A stretch of DNA of 57,025 nucleotides from Patescibacteria group bacterium. GTDB lineage: Bacteria; Patescibacteriota; Minisyncoccia; UBA6257; 1-14-0-10-40-38. Each line of letters starts with the position of its first letter. Within the stretch, counting starts at the first letter, position 1. Location of the stretch: NCBI GenBank assembly GCA_038064975.1, contig JBBTRX010000007.1, positions 1-57,025 of the forward strand. The letters are read 5' to 3'. Of the stretch, positions 6,464-45,024 are shown one piece after another. Made by a program: the position numbers and the translations under genes. The notes beneath the pieces were generated by a model, which was not told the origin of the DNA, searched no databases, and was given only the letters and a program-made list of their open reading frames with translations.

Positions 6464-8479
6464 TTATTTTTTCTTTACAAGACTTTTGTCTTTTGTCGTT
6501 TTTTCAAGTTCCCGAATCTCATCCCGAAGCAGAGCGGCTAATTCAAAATCAAGATTTGCCGCGGCTTCTTTCATTTCTTTTTCTTTTTGCTTTAAAAGCC
6601 TTTCCAGCGCAGTTTTTGATTTCGGAACCGGTTTTAATTCCATCTTCAGCACTTCTTCGGGAAGAATATCTCTGATTTCTTTGAAAATAGTTGTTGGCGT
6701 AATATTATGCTTCGTATTATACGCAAGCTGAAGGCTCCGTCTGCGATCTGTTTCCGAGATCGCGCGTTTAATAGAGCCGGTAATGTTGTCTGCATACATC
6801 AAAACCTGCCCCGCGACGTTACGCGCCGCGCGTCCGATAGTTTGTACGAGTGATGTTTCCGAACGGAGGAACCCTTCTTTATCAGCATCTAAAATTGCTA
6901 CTAGAGAAACTTCCGGCAAATCCAAACCTTCACGCAAAAGATTTACGCCAACGAGCACATCAAAATCCCCTTTACGTAATTTAGTAAGGATGCGGATTCT
7001 ATCCAATGTTTTAACATCGCTGTGGAGATACGCAACTTTTAATTTTTCTTTTTCAGATAAATATTCAGTTAAATCCTCCGCCATGCGCTTTGTAAGCGTA
7101 GTTACAAGAACGCGCTCTTTCCTTTCTACTCGTTCACGAATGCGCGGAATAAGGTCATCAATTTGGCCTACGACCGGTCGCACGATAATTTCCGGATCAA
7201 CTAGTCCCGTGGGGCGAATGATTTGCTCCACCACTTGCTTGCTGTTTTCTTTTTCGTATACGCCTGGTGTTGCCGATGTACAGATAATTTGGTCTACCCG
7301 AGCCATAAATTCCGGAGATTTAAGCGGACGATTATCTGCAGCAGACGGCAGGCGGAATCCATAATCAATCAGCGTCTTTTTGCGTGAAGCGTCTCCCGCG
7401 TACATTCCCTGGATTTGTGGAATAGTAACGTGCGATTCATCAATAACCGTCAGAAAGTCAGCTTTCCCAGTTTTTTTATCCTTAGGAAAATAATCTAACA
7501 GCGTGTCCGGCGCTTCCCCTGCCTTTCGCCCCGAAAGATGGCGCGAATAGTTTTCAATACCGTTGCAATAGCCGATTTCCGCTATCATCGCGAGATCAAA
7601 ATTTGTTCTGCGTTCAAGCCGTTCTGCTTCAAGTAGGAGTTTATCCTTTTCTAATTCTTTAAGGCGAGCATTAAGTTCGGCACGAATATCTTTAATCGCG
7701 CGCTCGCGTTCAGAAATCTCTGTAATAAAATGTTTTGCCGGAGAGATATAAATATCCGGCACCTGTGGAGTCTTTCCCGGACGGAAACCTTCCGTCGGAT
7801 CAACTTCGTAGATATTTTGAATAATTCCGTCGTGGACAAATATGGAATAAATCACTTCTCTATCCGGCGGCATAATTTCCCAATTTTCACCGCGGATGCG
7901 GAATGTACCACGCTTTAAGTCCGCGTTCGTGCGCGTAAATTGCAGTTCCACCAGCTTCCTCACAAACTTTTTTCTATCCAGCGTATCGCCTGCTTTGAAA
8001 TGAAAAATATTTTCCCGATATACTTCCGGCGCACCAAGGCCGTAAATACACGAAACAGATGCAACTACAATTACATCTTTTCTCGTTAAAAGCGCCATAG
8101 TCGCTGCGTGGCGCAATTTATCAATCTCTTCGTTGATCATCGCTTCTTTCGCGATATATGTATCAGAAGTCGGGATATACGCTTCCGGCTGGTAATAGTC
8201 GTAGTACGAAACAAAATAATTTACGGAATTGTGCGGAAATAATTCTCGAAACTCGTTCGTAAGCTGGGCGGCAAGCGTTTTGTTGTGTGCAATGACGAGC
8301 GTCGGTTTTTGGATACGTTCAATAACATTCGCTATCGTGAATGTCTTTCCTGATCCGGTAACGCCTAAGAGCGTTTGACGGTCATGCCCTTTTTTGAGTC
8401 CCTCGACGAGCTCATCAATCGCCTTTGGCTGATCGCCCGCGGGCTTATTATTTGAAACGATTTGAAATATGTTTTCCAT
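6464..8479 (-). CDS. uvrB: Excinuclease ABC subunit B
   Basis: [18 protein letters not shown] beta-hairpin, DESH, GRAARN, C-terminal UVR domain. Confidence 0.98.
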
Positions 8480-8559
8480 TATAGAACTAAAAACCCCCTT
8501 GCTTTTGGTATCGCTGAGGGTACACGAGCAACTCTAATGCATTTTATTGAAAAAACAAA

Positions 8560-8582
8560 CCTCGTCAGGATTTCTGACGAGG
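8560..8582 (-). terminator. Intrinsic terminator after two small membrane-peptide genes
   Basis: CCTCGTCAG-gattt-CTGACGAGG hairpin followed by a T-rich tract on the minus strand. Confidence 0.7.
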
Positions 8583-8600
8583 TGTAGAACTGCTAGTTCT

Positions 8601-8750
8601 CTAGAACGGATAGGGCCCTTCTGACCACTTGAACCCGAGGGATATCAGGACAATCAGAACAATCAGGAAAATTGCTGTTGCGAGTACGAAGATCTTCACT
8701 ATGGACAAATCTTCCTTGACGCTCGCAAACCGAGGATCTTTTTTCTCCAT
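8601..8750 (-). CDS. Small single-TM protein (49 aa, MEKKDPRF...)
   Basis: AAAGGGA RBS before ATG 8750; one hydrophobic helix; 14 nt downstream of the next small ORF. Confidence 0.55.
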   Translation of the reverse strand: MEKKDPRFASVKEDLSIVKIFVLATAIFLIVLIVLISLGFKWSEGPYPF

Positions 8751-8764
8751 GACCGTCCCTTTCG

Positions 8765-8932
8765 TCAAGAAGTGAAAGCTGAACGGATGAAGAACGAGAG
8801 CAAGAATCCCATGATTACGAAGACCACGACAGTGGACCCGATCATGACCGGAGTCCATTTCTTCTCCAGCTTCTTAAACCTCGGCCTTCCTGACGGCGGA
8901 CGAACCCCTCTCACTTCCGTAGATGTAGGCAT
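8765..8932 (-). CDS. Small single-TM protein (55 aa, MPTSTEVRGVRPPSGRPRFKKLEKKWTPVMIGSTVVVFVIMGFLLSFFIRSAFTS), below ORF-track cutoff
   Basis: GGGAGGAG RBS; TTGCAT-17-TATTGT promoter just after ftsX; basic N-terminus and one TM helix. Confidence 0.6.
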   Translation of the reverse strand: MPTSTEVRGVRPPSGRPRFKKLEKKWTPVMIGSTVVVFVIMGFLLSFFIRSAFTS

Positions 8933-9013
8933 CACTCCTCCCTAATGTTTCAGAGTTGTAGATTGGAAACGAACAAGATATTTACAATAACCCATACTTT
9001 AAAAGTATGCAAG

Positions 9014-9922
9014 TTATACTTTGAGATATCGCCGAATCGCGATGACTCCAGAAATAACTCCCAGAAAAACTCCGAACAAGACTTGGTATAAAAAGAGCAT
9101 TCCGATATTGGTCCAAAAATACGTTTGCAAATCCATAGGAGGAATAAATGCTTTAATGCTTCCGGAAATAATCGCGACAAAAGGAGCGAGAAGAATCAAA
9201 CTTAAGAGTGCGGATATGACGCCGAAAATAATCGCCTCTATAATATACGGACCGTTCAAAAAAATATTTGAAGCTCCGACAAGACGCATAATAGAAAGCT
9301 CATCGCGATTGGAATAAATCGCGAGGCGTATCGTATTAAATGTTACAAGTACGGAAGTGAGCGCGAGGAAAATAGCAACACCAAGACCTATGCGCTGTAC
9401 TCTGCTCACCATTAAATTCAGCCGCTCAATAGCGGTCCGGCTTTGTGTATACGTGACGTTTTCAATAAGTGAGGAAAATTCTTCTCCCTGCAAATAGGAA
9501 GCAATGAGGCCGTATTCGTTCGGATCATTCGCTTTCACATTCAGTGATGCGAGAAGTGGATTTTCGTCTAAAACATCTAGCGCCTGCGTAATAACAGTAC
9601 TCGCACCATTACGTTCGCGGAATAATTCTAAAGCTTTTTCGCGCGAAGTGTATTCTACCCCTTTTACCTCCTTCAATGTTTCAAGTGAGCGTTCAATTTG
9701 TAAAATCTGGTCTTCGGTTGCGCTGGTTTTAAAATAAACACTAATATCAATCTTATCCTGCAAGTGAGCAACGGCTATTTTAGTAACCGCGCCAAAAAGA
9801 ATTAGGCTAGCTGATGTAAGCAGGGCGATAACCATAACAATAACCGTTGCCGTCGAAAGCAAAGCGTTGCGTTTGAAACTTAGGATGCCATATTTGATTA
9901 TGCGATAAAGAGTTGTTGCCAT
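9014..9922 (-). CDS. ftsX: Cell division permease FtsX
   Basis: 4-TM layout; 'FNTIRLAIYSNRDELSIMRLVGAS..FLNGPYIIE'; follows ftsE. Confidence 0.93.
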   Translation of the reverse strand: MATTLYRIIKYGILSFKRNALLSTATVIVMVIALLTSASLILFGAVTKIAVAHLQDKIDISVYFKTSATEDQILQIERSLETLKEVKGVEYTSREKALELFRERNGASTVITQALDVLDENPLLASLNVKANDPNEYGLIASYLQGEEFSSLIENVTYTQSRTAIERLNLMVSRVQRIGLGVAIFLALTSVLVTFNTIRLAIYSNRDELSIMRLVGASNIFLNGPYIIEAIIFGVISALLSLILLAPFVAIISGSIKAFIPPMDLQTYFWTNIGMLFLYQVLFGVFLGVISGVIAIRRYLKV

Positions 9923-26124: not shown

Positions 26125-26651
26125 AAAAGAAGAGGCCCGACGTCGTGAGACGTCGGGCCAGACAAGTTTTGTTATGCCGAGAAGCGTAGGGTGAGCGCTC
26201 CTCTCCTGTCTATGGCACTTTTTTAAAGAGAGCTTATTCTGGTCTTCTCCTCACCAAAGCGAGGCGAATCCAACGAGAGTCCTTGATTCCACGACTGCTT
26301 ACTCGCCATCCGCCAATGGACACCGCATCGTCAAGATGACAATGGTTGTTGCGAATGAGTATGCGAAGCTTTTTCGTGTTCACCAGGTTCAGCCCTTAGC
26401 ACCTTTCGGCAAATGGAAGCTGCTGACGTAATACGAGGATACTACCTCTTTTCACGCCTCATCGCTCCATCTTTATCTCAACACCCTTGGGGGGTGCATT
26501 GATACGCAGACTTCACGCCTGCACCGTCTAGTCCCTTCAGACTCGTTTTCGGCGATGTTGTCGACCCCTCTATGAAGAGGGCCATCGCCTCAAGTACACC
26601 GTATGTTCCGCCATTGACCCTCGGGTCCAACCGAAAGCCATTGACGTTGCT
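26125..26651 (-). ncRNA. Candidate large (~525 nt) structured ncRNA
   Basis: TTGACA-16-TATAAT promoter with extended TG (26685-26658); terminator 26134-26159; no minus-strand ORF in the track; multiple hairpins. Confidence 0.65.
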
Positions 26652-26742
26652 TTTGTCATTATAGCATACCTATTATTCTTGTCAAGTGCCCCCCTAACTT
26701 TTAGAAGGTTGGGAGGGCAAGCCCCTTTTAAACCCGTAAAAA

Positions 26743-33984: not shown

Positions 33985-35229
33985 TTAGTTCCGTATGAAT
34001 GAGCGCATCATAGCGCGCGTTATGGTAATTGCGGAAAACATAGAAATAATTACCCCGATTAAAAGGGCGAGTGCAAATCCTTTGATAAACCCTGTCGTAA
34101 AATAGTACAAAATAACTGAAGTAATAATCGTCGTGATATTAGAGTCGCGAATAGAAAGCCAAGCTCGCTTAAAGCCGTCTTCAATAGCACCGAGACGAGA
34201 AACGCCCCGTTTCAATTCCTCCTTTGTGCGTTCAAAAATAAGAATGTTTGCATCCACCGCCATTCCGATAGAAAGCACGATGCCCGCGATACCGGCGAGC
34301 GTCATCGTGATGGAAAATATTTTAAACACTGCGAGGTTTAGTACTACGTAGATAACAAGCGCAAGAGCGGCAAAGACGCCGAACGTGCGGTAATAGAGGA
34401 TCATAAAGAGAGCGACAAATGCGGTACCAAGTGCGCCCGCGAATAATGTCTTCCTCAACGAGTCAGCTCCGAGCGTTGCGCCAATCGTCTGTTGAGTTAT
34501 GAGCGAAATCGGAGCAGGGAGCGCGCCTGCGTTAAAACGGGACACTAAGAGGCGAGCTTCGTCCGGCGTGAAGTTGCCAGTGATCTGCGCCTGCCCTCCG
34601 GAAATCTTCTGCTGTACAACGGGCGCGGTAATAAGATTGCCGTCAAGAAAAACAGCAATTTGTTTTCCAACATTCCGCTCGGTTAGCGTTTCAAAAATCT
34701 TTGCTCCCTCATCATTAAAATTAAGGCTTATCTGAGGCTTTCCGGTAACTTGGTCAAAGAAAACAGAGGCGCTGGTGATGTACCGGCCAGTAAGCTCCGT
34801 AGGGATAAAACTATCTTCTCCCGGAGTCTCTCCTTCCGCAGGAAGAACTTCTTTAACTTCCGCAAAGAGTAAAAAGGGAGTCTCTCCGATTTCATTAATT
34901 GCCTGTTCTACATCTTTAATGCCCGCGAGTTCAACGTTGATGCGATAAGAATCCCCGCTCCGTGCGGTAACGACTTGTGGCTCTGAAACGCCGAATAAGT
35001 TCACTCGCTTTTCCAGAACATCCCGAAGACCTTCCAATACCGTGGAACGATCAGCTTCCGAAACTGCACTCATATCCACTTCATACGCGAGGTGCGCGCC
35101 TCCCACCAAATCCAATCCTAAGCGCCACGGCAATACTTTGCCGATAAAGCTTGAGGGGTAAATAAAAAATCCCCCGACAACCGTGACAATCACGATAAGC
35201 ACCAGAATCCAGACAGAAGTTGATCTCAT
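33985..35229 (-). CDS. secD: Protein translocase subunit SecD
   Basis: 'LGLDLVGG', 'GVSEP', 'GMAVDANILIFER'. Confidence 0.96.
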   Translation of the reverse strand: MRSTSVWILVLIVIVTVVGGFFIYPSSFIGKVLPWRLGLDLVGGAHLAYEVDMSAVSEADRSTVLEGLRDVLEKRVNLFGVSEPQVVTARSGDSYRINVELAGIKDVEQAINEIGETPFLLFAEVKEVLPAEGETPGEDSFIPTELTGRYITSASVFFDQVTGKPQISLNFNDEGAKIFETLTERNVGKQIAVFLDGNLITAPVVQQKISGGQAQITGNFTPDEARLLVSRFNAGALPAPISLITQQTIGATLGADSLRKTLFAGALGTAFVALFMILYYRTFGVFAALALVIYVVLNLAVFKIFSITMTLAGIAGIVLSIGMAVDANILIFERTKEELKRGVSRLGAIEDGFKRAWLSIRDSNITTIITSVILYYFTTGFIKGFALALLIGVIISMFSAITITRAMMRSFIRN

Positions 35230-35851: not shown

Positions 35852-36019
35852 AATAATACAATGAAGAATAATGAAAAAACGAGTAAAAAGCAAGAATAAA
35901 AACTCTTTTTTATAATTAATTGAAAAACTATTTTATTAATAGATCATTGACGAATGAAATAAGAATGTGCTTTTTTGTTATTAGTATGTTCCAAAACCAC
36001 AACCAAGGAGACTCAAGCT

Positions 36020-36358
36020 GTGTTCCTACAACGCCTTCTTGCGCTTTGGGATAAGATCTTGTCGGAAATTTTGTATTCACCAATAGTCAATACTGGAAAT
36101 CAAAATGGAAAACATGAACGAACTTATCTCATTTACCCCGGTCGTTCTATTGCAATAGTAGGCACAGATGGAAAAATCCATACTATGACCGGCTTTTGGT
36201 CAGTGAATCACTATTATGATGGGAATAAACTTCTGAGGCGCATTCTTGCAAGAAAGGATCTTAAAACAGGAGAACGCCTGGCTACAGAAGAAGAGGTGTT
36301 GCAGTATCAAGAGAAGTTAAGAAAAGAATTTATTGGGGGTTTTGAAGATTATAATTAA
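36020..36358 (+). CDS. Hypothetical protein (start probably GTG 36020)
   Basis: AAGGAG RBS at 36005-36010; terminator at 36387-36413. Confidence 0.6.
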   Translation: MFLQRLLALWDKILSEILYSPIVNTGNQNGKHERTYLIYPGRSIAIVGTDGKIHTMTGFWSVNHYYDGNKLLRRILARKDLKTGERLATEEEVLQYQEKLRKEFIGGFEDYN

Positions 36359-36386
36359 CCTACGATCACACGAACCCTGTTCATAT

Positions 36387-36413
36387 CCCGATGTTTTCAA
36401 GCGTCGGGTTTTT
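36387..36413 (+). terminator. GACCCGACGTT-family terminator, copy 2 (diverged)
   Basis: cccgatgttttcaagcgtcggg-ttttt. Confidence 0.7.
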
Positions 36414-36543
36414 CTTTCTAAGCGCTTCTCGCTTTTTGTTAATAACATCCATGTATAGGAAGATGTAGTGCAGTCTGGAGTCTTCGTATTGGTTGCTATC
36501 TTTTTTATAATGCGACGAACTGCTTCCGTGATATTCTAAGGGT

Positions 36544-37152
36544 ATGCCACTAGAGTCACATCCAAAGCCAGCGCAGAAACCGATAGACTTCTCTCAAGAA
36601 AAGACTATTTCGAGTATCGTAAAGAGGGCTCTTCAGTATACGCAAATATCGCATGGATATGCCCTAGATCTTGGTTCCGGAGTTGGCCGTAATTCGTTTT
36701 TCCTAGCCGAGGAAGGATATTCAGTCGTTGCGGTTGACCAGGACTGCAATGTGCTAAGGAAACTTGCCCAAGAGGCACATCGACGAGAGTTGTTAATCGA
36801 AACCGTATGTACGGATATGACTTCATACAACGCTGACGCAGACCGATTCAACTTAGTTATCAGCATCAACACTCTTCACTTTCTCCCCAGAACAGACGTA
36901 TCAAAAGTTATCGCGCTAATGAAATCGAGCACTGCTATCGGAGGCATACACGCAGTTTCCGTACAAACTACACACAATAAACCGAATAAAGTGAAGCGAC
37001 TATTCGACGAAGGTGAGCTTAAATCGTATTACTCTGATTGGGAGATTCTCCACTACTCCGAGGATTGGGGAACTCCTTTTCGCCTAGCACCGCAAGGTCC
37101 AGTATTCACGAAACATCGGGCCGAAATAATCGCACGTCGGCGGGCAAAGTAA
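36544..37152 (+). CDS. TehB-like class I SAM-dependent methyltransferase
   Basis: 'ALDLGSGVGRNSFFLA..G..V.AVD', 'GELKSYY.DWEILHY'. Confidence 0.85.
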   Translation: MPLESHPKPAQKPIDFSQEKTISSIVKRALQYTQISHGYALDLGSGVGRNSFFLAEEGYSVVAVDQDCNVLRKLAQEAHRRELLIETVCTDMTSYNADADRFNLVISINTLHFLPRTDVSKVIALMKSSTAIGGIHAVSVQTTHNKPNKVKRLFDEGELKSYYSDWEILHYSEDWGTPFRLAPQGPVFTKHRAEIIARRRAK

Positions 37153-37200
37153 ATCTACAAGATACTTGACAAGCTAATAGCTGGATCGCTATACTATCAC

Positions 37201-37330
37201 CAGCATCAAGACATCTTTAGGGGTTTGGGATAGGACTCCGTGAGCCCCTTGGCTTACGAGCGTGGCAGTCGTACGACAGGTACCAGCAGTCAGCGCCTTC
37301 AATGAGCGTAGTCCTGAACCCCGCTTTTTT
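37201..37330 (+). ncRNA. Candidate ~130-nt sRNA
   Basis: TTGACA-18-TATACT promoter (37166-37195); ggggtttggga/tcctgaacccc closing stem then T tract; inner cgtgagcc/ggcttacg hairpin; no ORF. Confidence 0.6.
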
Positions 37331-37412
37331 ATGAACAGAAACTATACAGTATATTTAAAATAAAATTTTTAGCCGTCGTTCTCCATGCTAGTAAAATTTT
37401 TTTTATTGATTT

Positions 37413-37781
37413 TCATTCTTTCCACATCTCAATTTCTCCCCTCACAACTTCTTCAATGCTTCGTGAGCGACCAATAAAATAACCTTTGAATTTTGAATAG
37501 CTTTGATCGGGTTGCAAGACTCCGTTCGCATAATTCATAACGTCTGACTTTTCATTAACAATAGATATCTGAAGATATCCGCCTTCATCCATCAAACCAC
37601 GAACTTGGTATGATGCAACTTTTTCCACCTCATTGGTTTTTAATACTCCTTTAATCAAAGTGCCGTACTGGCTAAGTTTGCATTTGAATTGTTTTTCTCG
37701 CCGCGACTCCCCATAATGAACAACACCAAACCAAACTCCTCCAATTTTCTTTGGTGGTTTTTTGAATAAATTTCGTATCAT
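37413..37781 (-). CDS. AT-rich, beta-strand-rich hypothetical protein
   Basis: 122-aa ORF with GAGG RBS. Confidence 0.65.
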   Translation of the reverse strand: MIRNLFKKPPKKIGGVWFGVVHYGESRREKQFKCKLSQYGTLIKGVLKTNEVEKVASYQVRGLMDEGGYLQISIVNEKSDVMNYANGVLQPDQSYSKFKGYFIGRSRSIEEVVRGEIEMWKE

Positions 37782-37854
37782 ATATTTAACCCTCGTACTC
37801 CATGTATTTATTTTCTCACTATATTAAAAATGCATCAAATCTTATTTTCTTTTT

Positions 37855-38323
37855 AAAGAAAAAGACCCGACGTTCGAAAATGTCGGGTCGAGTGCGGGTC
37901 GCAGCCTCTTCCGTTGGTCAGCTCAAGGTCGAGCGACCGTTGCTGCAAGAAGACCCGTCATGGTCGGAGAGGTGAGGAGGACTGACGACATGAGACAGGA
38001 ACGCGTGGCCAGCAGGCGCTGACCACTGTTGTCAACAGGCGCGAACCAGTGATGGCGCGTCTCCTCCTCCGAGCCATGACGGGTGAAAGGTAGATGGAGC
38101 CCACTCCTTAGAGCGGGCTCCATTGGCAATCGAGACTCTCATTGTCCGATGAGTCTTCCCCGGCTTCTGCCAGAGTTGCTTGTGATCTCCTTTTACTCAT
38201 CCATCAAGCAGCTCATCCTTATCTCAAGGACAAGCGAGAGATGACTCACTACGAGACACGAAGAACTAGCGTGTACGGAACTACGAGAGTCAAGACTGCC
38301 ATCGAAAGGCGGCCCAAAGAACC
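37855..38323 (-). ncRNA. Candidate large (~470 nt) structured ncRNA
   Basis: TTGACA-18-TATCAT promoter (38359-38330); long helices; ends in GACCCGACGTT-family terminator copy 3 (37864-37889). Confidence 0.65.
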
Positions 38324-38403
38324 AAAATTATGATAGTAGATTTCTATGAATACTGTCAAGCAGCACTACTTATTGATTCAATAATATATGATACAATTTT
38401 TGT

Positions 38404-38649
38404 ATGACTACATGGACACACCCTGAAACACACTCTGGAGAAGTATTTTTTATCAATCTCACCTCTACAATGTTTGAGAAACTTTCTCTCCGTACAAAAC
38501 GGAAAGGAAATACCGCCCATGATGGCGAGGGTAATAAACTGGACCATGCCGATTGGTGGCCCGTATTTGTGCAGGTATCGGAACTTTCAGAACGCGAGCA
38601 AGATATTTCATCCGCACGACGGCAAATAAAAGAGATTTTATATAAATAA
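38404..38649 (+). CDS. Hypothetical protein (81 aa)
   Basis: ATG ORF ending at the hairpin agcccatctc-gtaa-gagatgggct. Confidence 0.45.
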   Translation: MTTWTHPETHSGEVFFINLTSTMFEKLSLRTKRKGNTAHDGEGNKLDHADWWPVFVQVSELSEREQDISSARRQIKEILYK

Positions 38650-38719
38650 AAAGAGCCCATCTCGTAAGAGATGGGCTTGGCTTTTCCAGCCGACACCGGA
38701 AACCCTTGTTCTTGAAGGG

Positions 38720-38806
38720 TTAGATGATGTCGTGCCAGGCCATGGCTGCGCTTGCGATTGTGATGCAAGCGGCCGCTGCGATGAAGAGTCGTGCGAAGTG
38801 CTTCAT
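38720..38806 (-). CDS. 28-aa peptide MKHFARLFIAAAACITIASAAMAWHDII (signal peptide plus 5 residues), below ORF-track cutoff
   Basis: GGAGG RBS at 38817-38821; n/h/c signal-peptide layout with A-M-A site; terminator ~38648-38680. Confidence 0.6.
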   Translation of the reverse strand: MKHFARLFIAAAACITIASAAMAWHDII

Positions 38807-38989
38807 CAGTTGTCGTCCTCCATGAAGAATCCTTCTTTCTGTGTTGTTCGTCACATAGCGTGTCCCTATCCTTGTGAGCCACCACTCTGCGACGATGCTC
38901 TTCTCATAATAAACATTATTATTGCAATATACCAGTGCGTTACTATACAGGTATTAAACAGTTTCTTTGTTGTCGAGTTTTCCCTTCTG

Positions 38990-39238
38990 CTAGATGTTTC
39001 CAGGCCAAGATGTCCGTCGACGCTCCCAGTCATTGTCTCCACCGATTATCAAGGGATTTTTTTGACGATAGCGTCGCTCTGCTTTCCCAGCTTGACGGAT
39101 AATATCCATTCGCGTGGGAGGAGACTTTCTATCCATTCTTGTTCTCCACGCCTCTCTTCGGCGATCTTTCTCAACCTCTCTCTCAGCTCGCCGAATAATA
39201 TCCATTAGCGGGAATGGCTTTTCATCCTTTTTCTTCAC
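38990..39238 (-). CDS. Small, very basic hypothetical protein with internal repeat (MDIIRRAE/MDIIRQAG)
   Basis: Purine-rich RBS, GTG start. Confidence 0.5.
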   Translation of the reverse strand: MKKKDEKPFPLMDIIRRAEREVEKDRRREAWRTRMDRKSPPTRMDIIRQAGKAERRYRQKNPLIIGGDNDWERRRTSWPGNI

Positions 39239-39316
39239 GAGGAAATCCCCCTTTCCCTTAGAATCTTGTCACCATGAAGTTCTCTCACAAATGCTTTTAA
39301 CAAGAGTATAAGAAAG

Positions 39317-39616
39317 TTATCGATCCAGTTGTCGGTCATGAGTCTCTCCGGTAAAACCTCTAGGACCATCTTTCCCATAAACCCTTGTGTACCATTGGAT
39401 GGATTCTAAATCATCAAAGAACCCCTGCATCGTGATGAGACGAGGAAGATGCTTCCCTTCTTGTTTGTCCCTTTCAACATCCTTTTCCTCCAGAAAAACA
39501 GTCTGACATTCAAGATCCGCCTCTTGTAAGGCCACCTTGGCTTGCTCACTGTCTGCGCCAGCATCAACGTAAAGCGTTCTCGGTTCGGATTTTCTCAATT
39601 TCCAGGTTGTTTCCAC
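39317..39616 (-). CDS. Small protein, possibly a Cys-motif-less glutaredoxin-like fold
   Basis: AAGGAG RBS before GTG 39616; 'TLYVD...S..AK..L' and 'LPRLIT..G' pattern. Confidence 0.6.
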   Translation of the reverse strand: METTWKLRKSEPRTLYVDAGADSEQAKVALQEADLECQTVFLEEKDVERDKQEGKHLPRLITMQGFFDDLESIQWYTRVYGKDGPRGFTGETHDRQLDR

Positions 39617-39691
39617 TAATCTCTCCTTTGTTAAAGAACGCAAAAAACCAGAAACTACCCTAAGGTTATTCTATCTTCTTTTATCTATAAA

Positions 39692-39860
39692 TGAAAAGAG
39701 CCACTAACCCCTGCGGGTTAGTGGCTGCGCTAGCCCCTTCCGAGGTAGCGGCTTAGAAAATGACCAACGGAAGGACTCTTTGTGCGGCCGCGATGAATCC
39801 CTGAGAATCAATCTTATGCTTTCGCACTCATCGACCTCTCAGCCGTTGGTTCAAGTACTA
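39692..39860 (-). ncRNA. Candidate ~165-nt three-way-junction RNA with terminator
   Basis: accaacgg/ccgttggt closing helix; ctgaga/tctcag arm capped by tgc-GAAA-gca; ggattc/gagtcc arm; agccactaacc/ggttagtggct terminator. Confidence 0.6.
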
Positions 39861-39945
39861 CCATACTACATCCATGCTGAAGCATTAGTAAATACTCTTA
39901 CAACACCGTTCTTGACATATTGATTTTATCTATGCGAGAATAACT

Positions 39946-40021
39946 CGACGGCTGGAGGTTGTCGTAGGGCGACCGCACATGAGCGCAGAAACCCTGACTC
40001 ATGACCAGCTGTCATTTTTTT
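39946..40021 (+). ncRNA. Candidate ~75-nt three-way-junction sRNA
   Basis: TTGACA at 39912 with TGn-GAGAAT; gacggctgg/ccagctgtc, ggttgtc/ggcgacc, catgag/ctcatg; T7 tail. Confidence 0.6.
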
Positions 40022-40081
40022 GCGCACTTAACCGTTTCGGTTTTAGAACCTGGTTGTACTCAATGATACCTTTCAGCTCAA

Positions 40082-40153
40082 ACTGACTACATAACTCTAT
40101 CAACCTGGCAAAAAGTGCATCCACAATTCGAGGTCTCCCTCGATACGGGGCAC
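40082..40153. repeat. 72-bp direct repeat, copy 1
   Basis: 65/72 identical to 42966-43037. Confidence 0.92.
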
Positions 40154-40228
40154 AGCCCATTTAGGACGTTTTGTTTTGCGTCAGTCGGCACAACTCGAGT
40201 ACTTAAATCGCCTCTGCTATACTAATAG

Positions 40229-40350
40229 CACTTGGTCCAATGGCAGAGCTCTAGAGCTCTGGAACTACCTGTGGCCACTTCAAAAGGTCCTCCCATTAGC
40301 CATTTTCAAGGCCGCCACTTCTCTCCGGAAGAGTGGCGGCCGCTTTTATT
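40229..40350 (+). ncRNA. Candidate ~120-nt sRNA
   Basis: TGn-TATACT at 40215-40223; cagagctc-ta-gagctctg palindrome; ggccgccact/agtggcggcc terminator; only a 4-codon ORF. Confidence 0.45.
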
Positions 40351-40445
40351 AAAACCTCTTGATTTCTAGTTGTGCAAACAAAAATAGCGGCTGAATCCAT
40401 TGTCGTAAGACGACAGATTCAACCGCTATGTAGCGCTGATAGAGA

Positions 40446-41699
40446 TCACGGTCGCGTAATGAGAGTCCACCTGCGCCCTGGTCGAAGCCATTGAAGCGCA
40501 TTACGAATATCACTCATTGTCACGCGCTCGAGATCGTTTCCGATTTCCGTGAGCGAAAGTATTCGCTGGTTCTCAGCAAGATCGATAAGCACACAGTCGC
40601 GAATACCATTGCCCGTCGAGTCAGTCATGAAGTTACCCGCGAGAGCTCGACGCTTGGTCTGCTCAAACAAGTCTTCACGTTCCCCCATAGAGGCAATGCA
40701 GATCTCGATGACTTCCTCGATCTCGTCGATCGCTTGGAGCGCCAACGCACCGCAGTTGATTGAGAACTCGTAGAAGTTCCGGAAATTGTACTGAGAACTA
40801 TTTATGGAGTAGCTCCACGCACGCCGCTCTCGCACCTCTTCGAAGAGCATTTCATTGAACATCTCCTTCAAGATACGAATCACTTGTTCATTGATGTTAC
40901 CTGGAATCTTCGCGACGCTTTGGTACGAACCAACCTCGATAGGAACCGTCATGTGTTTCGAGAATTCGAAGACGTGGCGAGTTTCTGACGGTGAGGCAAC
41001 ATCGAATGCTGGAGTCGGGAGCGGCGTTCGGCCCCCCTTCTTATTTGTCGCAAAAGGACTCTCGGAAAGAAGCTCGATGAGTTCTGACAACTGCATTCCG
41101 CCGACACCAACGATACTTATGTTCGCCGGCGCATAGTGTGTGTCGTAATGCGACTGCAAGTCGCCCTCTGTGATTCGTCCGATTGATTGGGGATTCCCAA
41201 GCGGGCGAGTGAATCTTTCGAGCCAATGCCCAGCATAGAGTGTCTTTTGCTTGCGCATATCCAGATCGTGCTTGAATATAATCGGATAGTGGCGATGAAA
41301 TTCGCCGACGATCACCTTACGCTCTCGCTCGATGCACTGTTCGAGTCGAGCCGACATTAACATGTGACCAAAAATTGAAAATGCTCCAGCCAGTATTTCT
41401 CTCTCTGTCGGAACAAAGAATCGATAGTGCGTATAAGCATAGCTAGTCGTACCGAGATTAACCTCTCCTCCGCAGTCCTCGAAGAATGCTTCCATTCTCT
41501 TCTTGGAGACATTGGTGTTCTCCAAAACGACATGTTCAACAAAGTGAGAGAGCCCTTCAAGGCCGACTGGATCATTTTCGGCTCCACTGTGAATCAGGAA
41601 TCCCATGGCTTCCCATGGACGTCCTGGCCAGTGAGCCCCATGCACCGTTAGTCCATTTGGCAAGGTCGCCGACTGGAATTCAGCGTACGGATCCCACAT
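40446..41699 (-). CDS. M16-family (insulinase-like) zinc peptidase
   Basis: 'GLSHFVEH' HxxEH, 'ERKVIVGE', 'LFEEVRERRAWSY'; GGGAGG RBS before ATG 41699. Confidence 0.9.
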   Translation of the reverse strand: MWDPYAEFQSATLPNGLTVHGAHWPGRPWEAMGFLIHSGAENDPVGLEGLSHFVEHVVLENTNVSKKRMEAFFEDCGGEVNLGTTSYAYTHYRFFVPTEREILAGAFSIFGHMLMSARLEQCIERERKVIVGEFHRHYPIIFKHDLDMRKQKTLYAGHWLERFTRPLGNPQSIGRITEGDLQSHYDTHYAPANISIVGVGGMQLSELIELLSESPFATNKKGGRTPLPTPAFDVASPSETRHVFEFSKHMTVPIEVGSYQSVAKIPGNINEQVIRILKEMFNEMLFEEVRERRAWSYSINSSQYNFRNFYEFSINCGALALQAIDEIEEVIEICIASMGEREDLFEQTKRRALAGNFMTDSTGNGIRDCVLIDLAENQRILSLTEIGNDLERVTMSDIRNALQWLRPGRRWTLITRP

Positions 41700-41855
41700 A
41701 GAGAACCTCCCTTTCTTGAGAGATATAGTTTTGGGAAAGAACGAACTTACTGTCATATAACAGCACCTACTCTCAAATATGTCAATCACGAACTCAAGCC
41801 AACAAACACCAAGAGCTTTGGGACACAAACAAAGCCCCCAACGGCTGTGCACGTC

Positions 41856-42311
41856 TTAGAGTAAGTGTAGGAGCTCCGTCAACGAGTGAATCACGTGCAT
41901 AGGGCTACCGGTATGGTCGTCAGGGAGTTCATTGCTGAACTTCCCGTTCTGAAACCAGATGGTCTGCGCTCCGTTTTCGTTCCCCCACTTGATTCCGCGA
42001 CACACCCGATCATCCACAATAACGACTTCGTCTCCCCGTAGATCGAGATCGTTCAATGTCGCGCGATAGCTCGCATCTTTGTCGTTTGCCGTGAAGCGAA
42101 TCGAGGAAAATAGTTGTTCGATTGAATGACTGCGGAGCACGCCCATCCTCGCCGCAACCTCCTGGTCGGGCGCTAGAGAGACAATGGCTAGCTTGTAGCG
42201 AGACGAAAGGTGGTCGAGTACAGCTTTTGTATCGGAAAAGAGAGTCTCCTTGTCGCGATCATAGAGTGTTCGTCCCCAATCAAAGATGATTGCCTTGTGT
42301 TGTCGTGGCAT
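41856..42311 (-). CDS. HAD-superfamily hydrolase
   Basis: 'IIFDWGRTL', 'AIVS', 'IVDDR..GIK.G...G.QTIW'. Confidence 0.85.
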   Translation of the reverse strand: MPRQHKAIIFDWGRTLYDRDKETLFSDTKAVLDHLSSRYKLAIVSLAPDQEVAARMGVLRSHSIEQLFSSIRFTANDKDASYRATLNDLDLRGDEVVIVDDRVCRGIKWGNENGAQTIWFQNGKFSNELPDDHTGSPMHVIHSLTELLHLL

Positions 42312-42510
42312 GAACTTAGACTACCACTGCAAGGATCGCGGTCAATACGAGGTTGACTGCAAACAACATTCTCCATGACAAGTAGTTGACAGATTTTTAT
42401 TAAAATTATATAATGATACGTATACATTTGACCTTTAGCAGTTGAATCCTCGTTGGCATTCGAGAGCGCGGCAATTTCTGTTTCGTTCTCGAGATGTCAA
42501 GGAGGCATCC

Positions 42511-42741
42511 ATGAAGACCGTGGCACGGGTGGATACCACCCAACCTTCCGATTCCTGTGCAGCAGAATTTCTTCGCGACTGTGAGAGGAAGCGCGGACCG
42601 ATCGACTACTATCCTCAAGGCACCCAGACAATGATCTTGGGTACCGAGCAATACTGCTACCTGTTCCTTCGTTGTGCTGAGTTCCTTGTCATCCGACCGG
42701 TCCGGTTCATCGAGCGGCAGTTCATGAAGTTTGCAGGGTAA
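42511..42741 (+). CDS. Hypothetical protein (76 aa)
   Basis: TTGACA-17-TATAAT promoter (42386-42414); AAGGAGG RBS; terminator at 42754. Confidence 0.7.
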   Translation: MKTVARVDTTQPSDSCAAEFLRDCERKRGPIDYYPQGTQTMILGTEQYCYLFLRCAEFLVIRPVRFIERQFMKFAG

Positions 42742-42753
42742 CGATAGCTAATC

Positions 42754-42784
42754 AAAGACCCGACGTTCAACGTCGGGTCTTTTT
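42754..42784 (+). terminator. GACCCGACGTT-family terminator, copy 4
   Basis: aaagacccgacgttcaacgtcgggtctttt. Confidence 0.75.
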
Positions 42785-42965
42785 CTTACTCTCATCATGC
42801 TCAAGTCCCCGAATGTTCGGGGACTTCATATTGGGTTGGAGCACGATTCTACACAGGTTCAGGGACGTTGTGGACTTCAGGGAGGTTGGAGCGAAATGGA
42901 TCAAGCCACCCTTCCCTTCTCTACGGTTACCTACTTGTTGCGCTCGAGGAAACTTCTGATCTCCG

Positions 42966-43037
42966 ACTGACTACATAACTCAACCAACCTCTCAAAGAGT
43001 GCATCCAAAGTTCGAGGTCTCCCTCGATACGGGGCAC
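42966..43037. repeat. 72-bp direct repeat, copy 2
   Basis: 65/72 identical to 40082-40153; last 27 bp identical. Confidence 0.92.
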
Positions 43038-43106
43038 TAAAATCTTTGCTTTTTCGCCTTAATTTCTATAGGATTTCGTAAGCACATTCCCAAAGGAGGG
43101 ATCCCC

Positions 43107-43337
43107 ATGCCCATCACTGCCTTTCTAGTGAGACTCCCCTTCATATTCTTACTTGCGCTTATCGGCGTTTGTGCCCCTATGCACGATCGCGTGTATTATA
43201 TGATGCAAGGTTTAGAAGGGCATATTCTGGAACATGACAATGAAGTAATCATAAGACGAAAACTACGTCCATTGAACCGTTTTGAAAAGTGGCTTTTCGG
43301 GCCTATCGTGGCGTCTGAACACAAAAGAAAGGGATAA
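43107..43337 (+). CDS. Small hypothetical protein with N-terminal hydrophobic segment
   Basis: AAGGAGG RBS. Confidence 0.6.
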   Translation: MPITAFLVRLPFIFLLALIGVCAPMHDRVYYMMQGLEGHILEHDNEVIIRRKLRPLNRFEKWLFGPIVASEHKRKG

Positions 43338-43613
43338 AAAAGTCATGTCTCCGCTCCCCCAGGAAGTAGAACGAGTGAAAGCCAATATCTCACATATTCC
43401 CGGAATCAGAGTTTTGCCTTCAATTGGTGAGTGGATATTGGTAGCGACTAGCGAGTCGCGGAAGTTCTGCGAGAAGCTGTACAAGCTTGATAATAAACCA
43501 CCTCCCCGAGCAAATTTTTGCTCGGTTTTTTTATTTCATTAATATTTCACAACAATAATAGTTATATTAAAAACAGTTCTCTGTTCTTCTACAACTCAAA
43601 GGAGGTAACTTAA

Positions 43614-43889
43614 ATGTCACCCGAAGAAAAAGAAAGGGCAATAGATCTATTCAAGGCAATTTCAGGTCTTTCCCTTACCACCGAGCCCGTAATTGCCAAC
43701 TGGATTGATGCAGTCGTCGGGCAACCAGAGAAAATTGAAAAATATGTGAATTTCCGACTTGAGCAAAAAGTTGTAGTTGTTCCCCGCCAAGGACCTGGCG
43801 GAGTGATCAGCATCAGAATCTCGGACGAACCAAGAGAAAACGACACAACGGCCACTCTACTTCGCGAAGCAATCCAGCAAGCTGCATAG
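43614..43889 (+). CDS. Hypothetical protein (91 aa)
   Basis: AAGGAGG RBS; gagcg...cgctc-T terminator. Confidence 0.7.
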   Translation: MSPEEKERAIDLFKAISGLSLTTEPVIANWIDAVVGQPEKIEKYVNFRLEQKVVVVPRQGPGGVISIRISDEPRENDTTATLLREAIQQAA

Positions 43890-43926
43890 CCGATCCGAGC
43901 GTCTCTCTTTGTGAGAGCGCTCTTTT

Positions 43927-45024
43927 TTATTCCAATTCTCCTTTTAAGTCTTCAAGAAGCTTTTTCGCGTTCGCAGTTAATTTCTTCGGGAATTTAATAT
44001 CCATATCCACGAGTAAGTTACCGCGAAGCGGACTCCCCAATTTCGGCATACCTTCGCCGTTTACTACAATTGTTTTTCCAAAAATAAAGTTAGGAGGAAC
44101 GTCAACAGAAATTTTTCCGCCTGAGAGCGTTTTGACTATAACTTTTCTTTCCAAGAGAATGTCCGCAAGATTTGCGTCGTGCCGGATACGCACGTCGTCC
44201 CCTTCGCGTGTAAATACCGGATGCGGTTTTACCCGAATACGAATATAGAGATCTCCTTCGGAAGCACTGTTCGGACCTGCTTCTCCGCCGCCCTGGATTT
44301 TTACGAGCTGGCCGTCATGCACGCCTGCGGCAATGCCCACCTGCACAGTTTTTTCTCCTTGAACACGTCCTGCTCCGGAACATTTGCCGCAAATTTTATT
44401 TGGAATCTTGCCTTGGCCCAAACACTTCGCACACGGCTTTACCTGCGCGAAATTACCGAAGAATGTTCTCCGGGACTCCTGAATCTCTCCTCTGCCGTCG
44501 CACGCAGAACACTCCGTAAACCCTTTCGCTTCAAAATGTCCTTTTCCCTTACACTCCGTGCAAGCGATAAATGTTTTAAATGTAATCGGCTTCGTAACAC
44601 CGCGAAACGCGTCTTCAAGCGCGATTTCCTGCACAAGCTCTAAATCAGATCCGCGTTCATACGCACGCCGTTTCCGCTTTACGCCCATACCTTCAAAAAA
44701 GGCGTCAAAAATATCCCCTAAATTTCCTAGGTCATCAACATTCACAGAATCAAACCCTTCTCCGAAATTGCGGAAATCAAAACCGCCTTGGCCGCCGCCT
44801 CCCATATTGCCGCCTTCAAACACACGGCCAAAACGGTCGTACTGGGCGCGCTTTTCTTTATTGCTTAAAATTTGATACGCTTCATTAATTTTTTTAAACA
44901 TGCCGTCATCCCCCCCGGATTTATCCGGGTGGTACTTGTGGGCAAGCTTGCGATAAGCGCGCTTAATCTCCTCTTCAGTCGCGCCTTTCTGGACGCCTAA
45001 AATTTTGTAGTAATCTTCTGCCAT
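43927..45024 (-). CDS. dnaJ: Chaperone DnaJ
   Basis: HPD J-domain, G/F region, four CxxCxGxG repeats. Confidence 0.97.

Follow-up and report, generated by a model that had tools for sequence, protein, structure and literature searches.

The stretch of DNA analysed here (henceforth the window; 57,025 nt, positions 1-57025 of contig C7 of a Patescibacteria group genome, G000, assembled as 782,495 bases in 11 contigs and 98.4% complete) raises the question of what is encoded at 37855-38359, a GC-rich island that is poor in open reading frames (ORFs) and in which the GC content reaches 0.58 (37900-38199) against 0.35-0.39 in the flanks. A first-pass annotation had proposed that this island gives rise to a large (~470 nt) and highly helical non-coding RNA (ncRNA) from the minus strand, and the proposal has been borne out by the z-scores of the fold and by the orientation of promoter and terminator, with no Rfam match and no good ORF in the locus. 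We estimate at roughly 0.85 the probability that the island is a structured ncRNA gene and the longest member (henceforth copy A) of a new, lineage-specific family with three copies in this genome. The second part of our reading, a link between this family and the single retron of the genome, is more tentative (about 0.35), and the evidence on the function of the family is thin.

The fold of the locus clearly exceeded what its composition would give. On the minus strand the 505 nt reached -213.4 kcal/mol, compared with -166.2 +/- 6.3 in 100 dinucleotide shuffles (z -7.54), not one of which folded as well, and the plus strand gave a z of -6.46. Both major parts of the predicted RNA were also structured when folded alone, i.e. 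the 5' domain (38087-38325, z -5.70) and the 3' hairpin domain, which we call the module (z -6.09). In a genome-background control, for which 417 segments of 400 nt along C7 were folded and their energy was regressed on GC, the segment 37801-38200 ranked second by GC-corrected folding energy (-3.0 standard deviations, sd); a better-centred segment (37901-38300) reached -185.3 kcal/mol. The individual helices described at first pass could all be located, both in the sequence and in the minimum-free-energy fold. They are the 13-bp hairpin at 38094-38123, with one A-C mismatch on the plus strand that reads as a G-U pair on the minus strand, the perfect 11-bp helix formed by acccgtcatgg (37953-37963) with ccatgacgggt (38074-38084) and extended by GGAGGAG/CUCCUC, and the smaller stems named there. 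No paralog or homologue was found for the 5' domain, and the argument for its structure is therefore a thermodynamic one.

The promoter and the terminator reported to enclose the locus are likewise both in the sequence and on the same, minus strand (Table 1). Four promoter-like sites were counted in the region, compared with 2.5 +/- 1.5 in shuffles. Transcription is predicted to start near 38323 and to proceed independently to 37855 on the minus strand, which would yield an RNA of roughly 465 nt (~38323 to ~37860). We assign the RNA to the minus strand because of the orientation of promoter and terminator, the G-U pair that replaces an A-C mismatch in the 13-bp hairpin and the slightly better folding energy of that strand. 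The terminator of copy A was not flagged by the terminator scan, whereas the same hairpin, with its UUCG loop, was flagged in the two paralogs described below; the scan missed it because an A-C mismatch widens the loop.

Could the island be a gene for a protein instead? The ORFs in the span are short, with 68 amino acids (aa) on the minus strand and 63, 57 and 53 aa on the plus strand, most of them with TTG or GTG as the start codon. Their starts had been judged poor at first pass and we agree, given that the minus-strand ORFs begin with TTG or GTG and that no ribosome-binding site could be seen by eye. None of the seven local ORFs matched Pfam at E<=0.01, the longest one (68 aa) had no homologue among the searched proteins of 37-119 aa, and the region shared with the paralogs cannot be coding because no reading frame survives the indels of 1, 1, 7 and 13 nt between copy A and its paralog B (below). 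No conserved ORF was found. Beyond the bare existence of these ORFs nothing speaks for a real gene among them, and we give this explanation practically no credence.

Known RNA families did not account for the locus either. With 4227 Rfam models at the gathering threshold, the only matches in the whole window were three tRNAs, and even at E<=10 the 13 matches in 37300-38900 were all far under their thresholds (the best inside the locus scored 15.1 bits against a threshold of 70). We take these models to include those of retron msr, OLE, GOLLD, ROOL, HEARO and raiA. A housekeeping identity was rejected: RNase P and transfer-messenger RNA (tmRNA) sit elsewhere in the genome, and the models of 6S RNA and of the signal recognition particle (SRP) RNA were unmatched, in the case of 6S RNA (RF00013) with no match at E<=1 in the whole genome. 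As observations on the genome itself, SRP RNA (RF00169 and RF01854, small and large) also gave no match at E<=1 in this 98% complete assembly, and RNase P scored 99.6 bits, just below its cut-off of 100 bits.

The evidence for a family comes from the genome itself. BLAST searches within its 782 kb showed that the 3' half of copy A has two shorter relatives, both on contig C2. Copy B (G000:C2:~1085-845) was found through a match at C2:837-1050 with 74% identity, and copy C (G000:C2:~93100-92915) through a match at C2:92919-93082 with 66% identity over the hairpin domain plus the terminator. The unit common to the three is the module, a domain of ~135 nt closed by a near-invariant helix of 11-12 bp, ACCCGUCAUGG/CCAUGACGGGU, of which 11 bp are perfect in copy A and which reaches 15 bp in copy C. 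A covariance model of this shared domain (R1) hit exactly three places in the genome, with 126 bits at copy A and 139.8 and 125.1 bits at the paralogs, the reverse strands scoring 21-27. The paralogs also fold well (z -4.76 for B and -4.63 for C), and the hairpin P3c is kept in all three with differing sequence, namely GGUCAGC/GCUGGCC (A), GGCGAGC/GCUCGCC (B) and GCGAUGA/UCAUCGC (C). Copies A and B both carry a 3' hairpin and a ~90%-identical tail that leads to the terminator, while copy C passes directly from the domain to the terminator; the similarity of A and B ends at the 5' arm of the closing helix and extends for ~90 nt past the 3' arm, up to the terminator. The hairpin of copy C is shifted by one column in the alignment of the three copies. 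Conservation is higher in the tail and the conserved centre than in the variable hairpins. Two alternative pairings are predicted for the strand GGAGGAGGAG, with CUCCUC or with CGCGUUCC, and in the fold of the whole RNA the tail pairs with the 5' end (CUUUCG/CGGAAG, GGCC/GGCU).

Table 1. Features of copy A and of its transcription signals, in the order of the predicted RNA (positions are those of the window).
Feature	Position	Strand	Sequence, pairing and evidence
Sigma-70-like promoter	38359-38330	minus	TTGACA/18/TATCAT, 11/12 positions match
5' domain	38125..38300	minus	Multi-branched fold, closed by GGCAGUC..GACUCUCGUAG with CAAUGAGAGUC..GAUUGCC; unique to copy A
13-bp hairpin, UAAG loop	38094..38123	minus	G-U pair on minus, A-C on plus
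Shared ~135-nt hairpin domain (module)	37949..38086	minus	Model R1, 126 bits; fold z -6.09; alignments
P1 5' arm	38074..38084	minus	ACCCGUCAUGG; identical in the three copies bar one C-to-U in copy C, pair kept (U-G)
Purine-rich strand	38061-38070	minus	GGAGGAGGAG; pairs with CCUCCUCACCUCUCC (37966-37980)
Conserved centre (P3b)	38026-38038	minus	GGUYCGC..UGUUG(A)CAAC; within the module
Variable hairpin P3c	38007-38024	minus	Within the module
P1 3' arm	37953..37963	minus	CCAUGACGGGU; invariant in all three copies
3' hairpin	37916..37938	minus	GGUCGCUCGACCUUGAGCUGACC; 3' arm GAGCUGAC common to paralog B
Conserved tail	37888..37915	minus	AACGGAAGAGGCUGCGACCCGCACUCGA; ~90% identical to paralog B
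Intrinsic terminator	37889-37855	minus	Hairpin GACCCGACAUUUUCGAACGUCGGGUC (CCCGAC..UUCG..GUCGGG), then T-run UUUUUCUUU

Beyond this genome, relatives were scarce. BLAST detected no homologue of the locus in any of 40 related genomes (11 from its own family and 29 from other families in the order; its genus is not represented), and R1 had no match at E<=0.01 in the 11 family genomes. Exact-pattern scans yielded no more than chance matches. In metagenome contigs there were three, all GC-rich, coding-looking and, by eye, unrelated. Among genome contigs the tail motif had no match and the helix pattern two (in Propionibacteriaceae and Novacetimonas records), one of them on the same contig as a metagenome match. 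Among viral contigs the tail motif again had none, and the best of 14 matches to a looser helix pattern scored 16.3 bits with R1, compared with 125-140 bits for the real copies. DNA of the locus is present in groundwater metagenome runs of two studies, which may be the source of the assembly, and one soil run holds a short piece of it. When metagenome contigs were compared, only source-like copies, paralog B and one soil contig were recovered. This soil contig (268 nt, depth 2) is 98% identical to 37855-38067, with four differences, one of which (at 38022) turns a U-G pair of P3c into C-G, and its similarity stops altogether past the T-run, which ends at 37855.

An element that appears in soil next to a different flank might also be a relic or a selfish repeat, i.e. 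duplicated palindromic DNA, either similar to a miniature inverted-repeat transposable element (MITE) or left over from lost retrons, which would owe its good fold to the inverted repeat and would no longer work as RNA. The arms of the module do resemble terminal inverted repeats and are invariant, there are just three copies, all in variable regions, and folding of the plus strand is almost as strong as that of the minus strand. Nevertheless, the similarity of A and B past the 3' arm implies that the unit is not bounded by the inverted repeat, and no target-site duplication could be seen by eye at the arms; these two features, together with the number of copies, led us to reject a MITE as such. 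The retention of internal hairpins while their sequence changes, the strong structure of the 5' domain that is unique to copy A and the near-consensus promoter of copy A also speak against a mere repeat, and we regard this explanation as improbable.

If the family consists of RNA genes, what could they do? A search for reverse transcriptase (RT) domains identified four places in the genome, on contigs C1, C2 and C3, and none in the window. Only one of them is a retron-type RT (C2:92477-91542, 312 aa). In PADLOC it matches RT_II-A best (3.8e-25), ahead of other retron RT types (RT-Toprim_I-C, Ec107-like), and in NCBIfam retron_St85_RT (1.2e-25), all of them under the curated cut-offs; Pfam RVT_1 gives 25.3 bits against a cut-off of 29.6. 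The translation contains NALIH, VVTG and YIDD, and NAXXH and VTG are described as signatures of retron RTs (Mestre et al. 2020, PMC7736814; Gonzalez-Delgado et al. 2021, PMC8632793). The remaining three places belong to two RTs that are like those of group II introns or of diversity-generating retroelements (DGRs), at C1:~40720-41750 and, split into two frames, at C3:~8450-9520; DGRs provide most of the RTs in these lineages according to Gonzalez-Delgado et al. (PMC8632793).

Copy C lies ~440 nt upstream of the start of the retron-type RT and on the same strand. Read along the minus strand, the locus consists of a tRNA-Arg, a terminator, copy C, a terminator, a promoter (TTGACT/18/TATAGT, 10/12 matches), an RNA that we call D, a terminator-like hairpin, a weaker promoter-like site, a Shine-Dalgarno sequence and the RT. 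RNA D is ~330 nt long, ORF-free, adjoins the RT and is closed by a 13-bp helix, AUCCGAAGGUGAG/CUCACCUUCGGAU, that spans 244 nt. When 400 other genomes of the order were sampled, 11 had a homologue of the RT (27-45% identity), a patchy distribution that fits an accessory element. Six of the 12 RT loci, our own included, have a helix of 12-17 bp with a span of 206-247 nt, located 6-121 nt upstream of the RT start; the remaining six have a 12-bp helix over 77 nt, a 12-bp helix over 412 nt, a 10-bp helix over 260 nt or, in three cases, no such helix. On the basis of this pattern, the place and the architecture of the cognate retron ncRNA belong to D and not to the module, and since half of the loci have such a helix, a long closing duplex is the local architecture of retron ncRNAs, which the module has in common with them.

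Some further features of these RT loci can be mentioned here. Beside the retron-type RT there is no obvious effector gene, RT and D (G000:C2:91539-92907) being followed by a 55-aa ORF and then by a tRNA-Gly. After this tRNA-Gly (L019 ~515-890; G000:C2 ~90790-91160) come two units of ~180 nt, each of which terminates in a copy of this tRNA's 3' end and includes its T-arm as reverse complement; similar units follow the tRNA-Arg and the tRNA-Gly by the RT homologue in G010 (upstream region of L022). At the RT locus of G196 (L024, G196:C24:1-830) a duplicated structured unit of ~90 nt lies upstream of the RT-proximal RNA. Two other genomes (G099 and G176) carry, upstream of a D-like RNA, a second structured RNA of ~245 nt with a closing helix of 12-13 bp, 76% identical between the two species (L026/L027), which indicates that a second, distal RNA at such an RT locus is not unique to G000.

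The retron is the most specific functional lead that we have, because one copy in three lies less than 0.5 kb from the sole retron RT in 782 kb and because the closing duplexes are similar. The family would then act in trans as folded RNA tied to this retron. Its invariant closing helix would correspond to the a1/a2 duplex by which retron ncRNAs are closed, and the RT, whose gene is beside copy C, might bind the family RNAs either as extra templates or as decoys or regulators; both this binding and any complementary DNA (cDNA) made from these RNAs are predictions. In its most specific form, a multi-template retron, one RT would serve several dispersed RNA genes, binding the three module RNAs through their closing duplex, with extra cDNA or regulation as the outcome. 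We consider this specific form rather unlikely. In the literature searched there was no report of retrons with dispersed ncRNA genes or of such RNAs in this lineage.

A number of observations weigh against our reading. Concerning the RNA family as such, the check for homolog covariation was not significant on three copies (80 of 500 shuffles scored at least as high as the real alignment) and the P1-P2 helix has 13 pairs out of 16 that never vary, so that the structural case is built on thermodynamics and on the retained hairpins and not on statistics of compensatory change. The scan accepted a promoter for copy A only, with none for B or C, and among the sequencing runs listed as carrying DNA of the locus there is no RNA run. 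Concerning the retron, the RT already has its cognate ncRNA D directly upstream, D-like leaders are conserved at the RT homologues, and no sequence similarity links D to A, B or C. The R1 module was found at none of the 11 homologous RT loci, even with filters off (best 14.8 bits, E 0.05), and four other RT-bearing genomes (G099, G176, G392 and G196) hold no additional copies of the RNAs that lie upstream of their RT. Between copy C and the pair of D and RT stand the terminator of copy C and a new promoter, and A and B are far from any RT. In each of the three copies the P1 helix is followed by 2-3 unpaired bases and then by G residues, none of them singled out as a branching G. Finally, copy A is on a different contig from B and C, all three are in tRNA-linked or variable regions, and the adjacency of one copy in three could simply arise from the fact that family and retron both sit in such regions.

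Several of these points would suit a trans-acting RNA that has nothing to do with the retron, binding or sequestering a protein through the helix and the conserved centre, or base-pairing with targets through the tail, the position of copy C being a coincidence. Copy A has its own promoter and terminator, tail and centre are better conserved than the variable hairpins, all copies are in tRNA-linked or variable regions and the module is missing from the other 11 RT loci. Partners of such an RNA were not evident: the reverse complement of the tail motif (11 nt) has, with one mismatch allowed, four matches, of which two are the copies themselves and two have no obvious relation to a start codon, and no candidate gene for a protein partner lies beside all three copies. 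A rough estimate also makes it improbable that, in 782 kb, one copy in three would land by chance less than 0.5 kb from the sole retron RT. We consider a retron-independent role somewhat unlikely, and continue with the retron-linked family as our preferred reading.

How does copy A compare with known systems? In architecture it is most like a retron ncRNA. The module is closed by a long duplex of 11-15 bp (12-17 bp in the ncRNAs beside this RT family), copy C is upstream of and co-oriented with a retron-type RT, and the locus is in accessory DNA. Yet the contiguity with an RT that marks retron ncRNAs is missing, given that there is no RT in the window and that a terminator, a promoter and D cut off copy C. 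The differences also extend to the RNA itself: in copy A the closing duplex encloses just the module instead of all 465 nt, the RT comes with a cognate ncRNA that is separate from the family, each family copy has its own terminator, and copy A, at ~465 nt, carries an unrelated 5' domain. Typical retron ncRNAs are far shorter than that.

GOLLD, ROOL, OLE and raiA are large and structured ncRNAs of bacteria that are located in variable or prophage regions, frequently close to tRNA genes. Copy A resembles these large orphan ncRNAs in its length of several hundred nt, its multiple domains, its own promoter and terminator and its variable, tRNA-adjacent region, and differs from them in that it matches no Rfam model at the gathering threshold (and none credibly at E<=10), has a far narrower spread (one genome plus near-identical metagenome copies) and contains a paralogous sub-domain. 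The module by itself, a long irregular hairpin of 130-140 nt, recalls 6S RNA, for which no other gene was found in the genome, but it has no RF00013 match at E<=1, exists in three copies and is predicted to fold without a large central bubble.

Very small genomes, such as this one (0.78 Mb, 98% complete), are thought to hold little beyond essentials, and here several ORF-free stretches bounded by promoters and terminators are given to large, folded RNAs (as predicted). If expressed, the family would be a new class of structured RNA with a built-in comparison set, three paralogs with one common domain. If the link to the retron were true, a retron enzyme could work with distant RNA genes, which would change both how retrons are searched for and how their templates are defined, and the multi-template version would place such a system in a reduced, probably episymbiotic bacterium. 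Should neither hold, the locus would remain a clean example of lineage-specific RNA genes arising in variable regions linked to tRNAs.

The setting of copy A is of this kind. It lies inside a gap of ~8.1 kb (35852-43926) between a tRNA-Lys and a gene for a 365-aa protein (43927-45024). SecD (33985-35229) is conserved in nine of the 11 family genomes with 64-70% identity, and the M16 peptidase inside the gap (40446-41852) has no counterpart in any of the 11. In three relatives the homologue of the 365-aa gene and the tRNA-Lys are ~56 nt, 0.7 kb and 3.4 kb apart; in a fourth, this homologue was not within the stretch examined. The segment 35852-43926 is specific to this lineage, an insert in a variable position beside tRNA-Lys of the sort that houses accessory and defence elements. 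It contains a TehB-like methyltransferase, the M16 peptidase, a HAD hydrolase, small ORFs without a family and RNA candidates. We found no repeat of the tRNA-Lys (as would mark an attachment site) in the insert, and none of ten small neighbouring ORFs matched PHROGs as evidence of phage origin. A guide (omega) RNA of TnpB or IscB was rejected as well, PF07282 having no match in the genome and the neighbours being the TehB-like methyltransferase and small family-less proteins.

The nearest gene downstream of copy A, coding for a protein of 122 aa (37781-37413), is on the same strand and starts 75 nt beyond it; the protein is 'hypothetical' in the Atlas, where its neighbour cluster is commonest in Candidatus Saccharimonadota, which is a hint and not a placement. 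This arrangement would allow copy A to be a long 5' leader whose terminator acts as an attenuator of the 122-aa gene, and indeed the two are co-oriented and no promoter-like site between terminator and gene passes the scan. The terminator is shared, though, by B and C, which have no equivalent gene downstream (convergent sequence after B, the promoter of RNA D after C), and no riboswitch or leader family was matched. With a gene directly downstream of copy A only, we rejected a cis-regulatory leader or riboswitch as the identity of the family, and hold it very improbable that copy A by itself works in this manner.

The terminator type of copy A is not confined to the family. A near-identical hairpin of the CCCGACG-UUCG-type-CGUCGGG kind is reused after unrelated genes and RNAs at seven places in the genome (C2:848, C2:92925 and C7:26135, 35358, 36385, 37866 and 42757), five of which are in the 26-43 kb part of the window. 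One of them ends another RNA candidate (26130-26685, minus strand), ~520 nt long, ORF-free and without an Rfam match, which has the promoter TTGACA/16/TATAAT (26685-26658) and the terminator, again CCCGACG..CGUCGGG, at 26158-26136. The first-pass annotation had seen no obvious similarity between this 26-kb RNA and copy A, and BLAST agrees, finding none apart from the common type of terminator hairpin. Directly downstream of the 26-kb RNA (26118-25985) is a unit of ~100 nt with a promoter-like site and a terminator of its own. Lastly, the insert that holds copy A includes a further ORF-free stretch of ~700 nt on the minus strand (39690-40390), with two outliers in GC-corrected folding energy (-2.5 and -2.4 sd) and a hairpin plus T-run at its end (~39724-39690), which may be a third large structured RNA.

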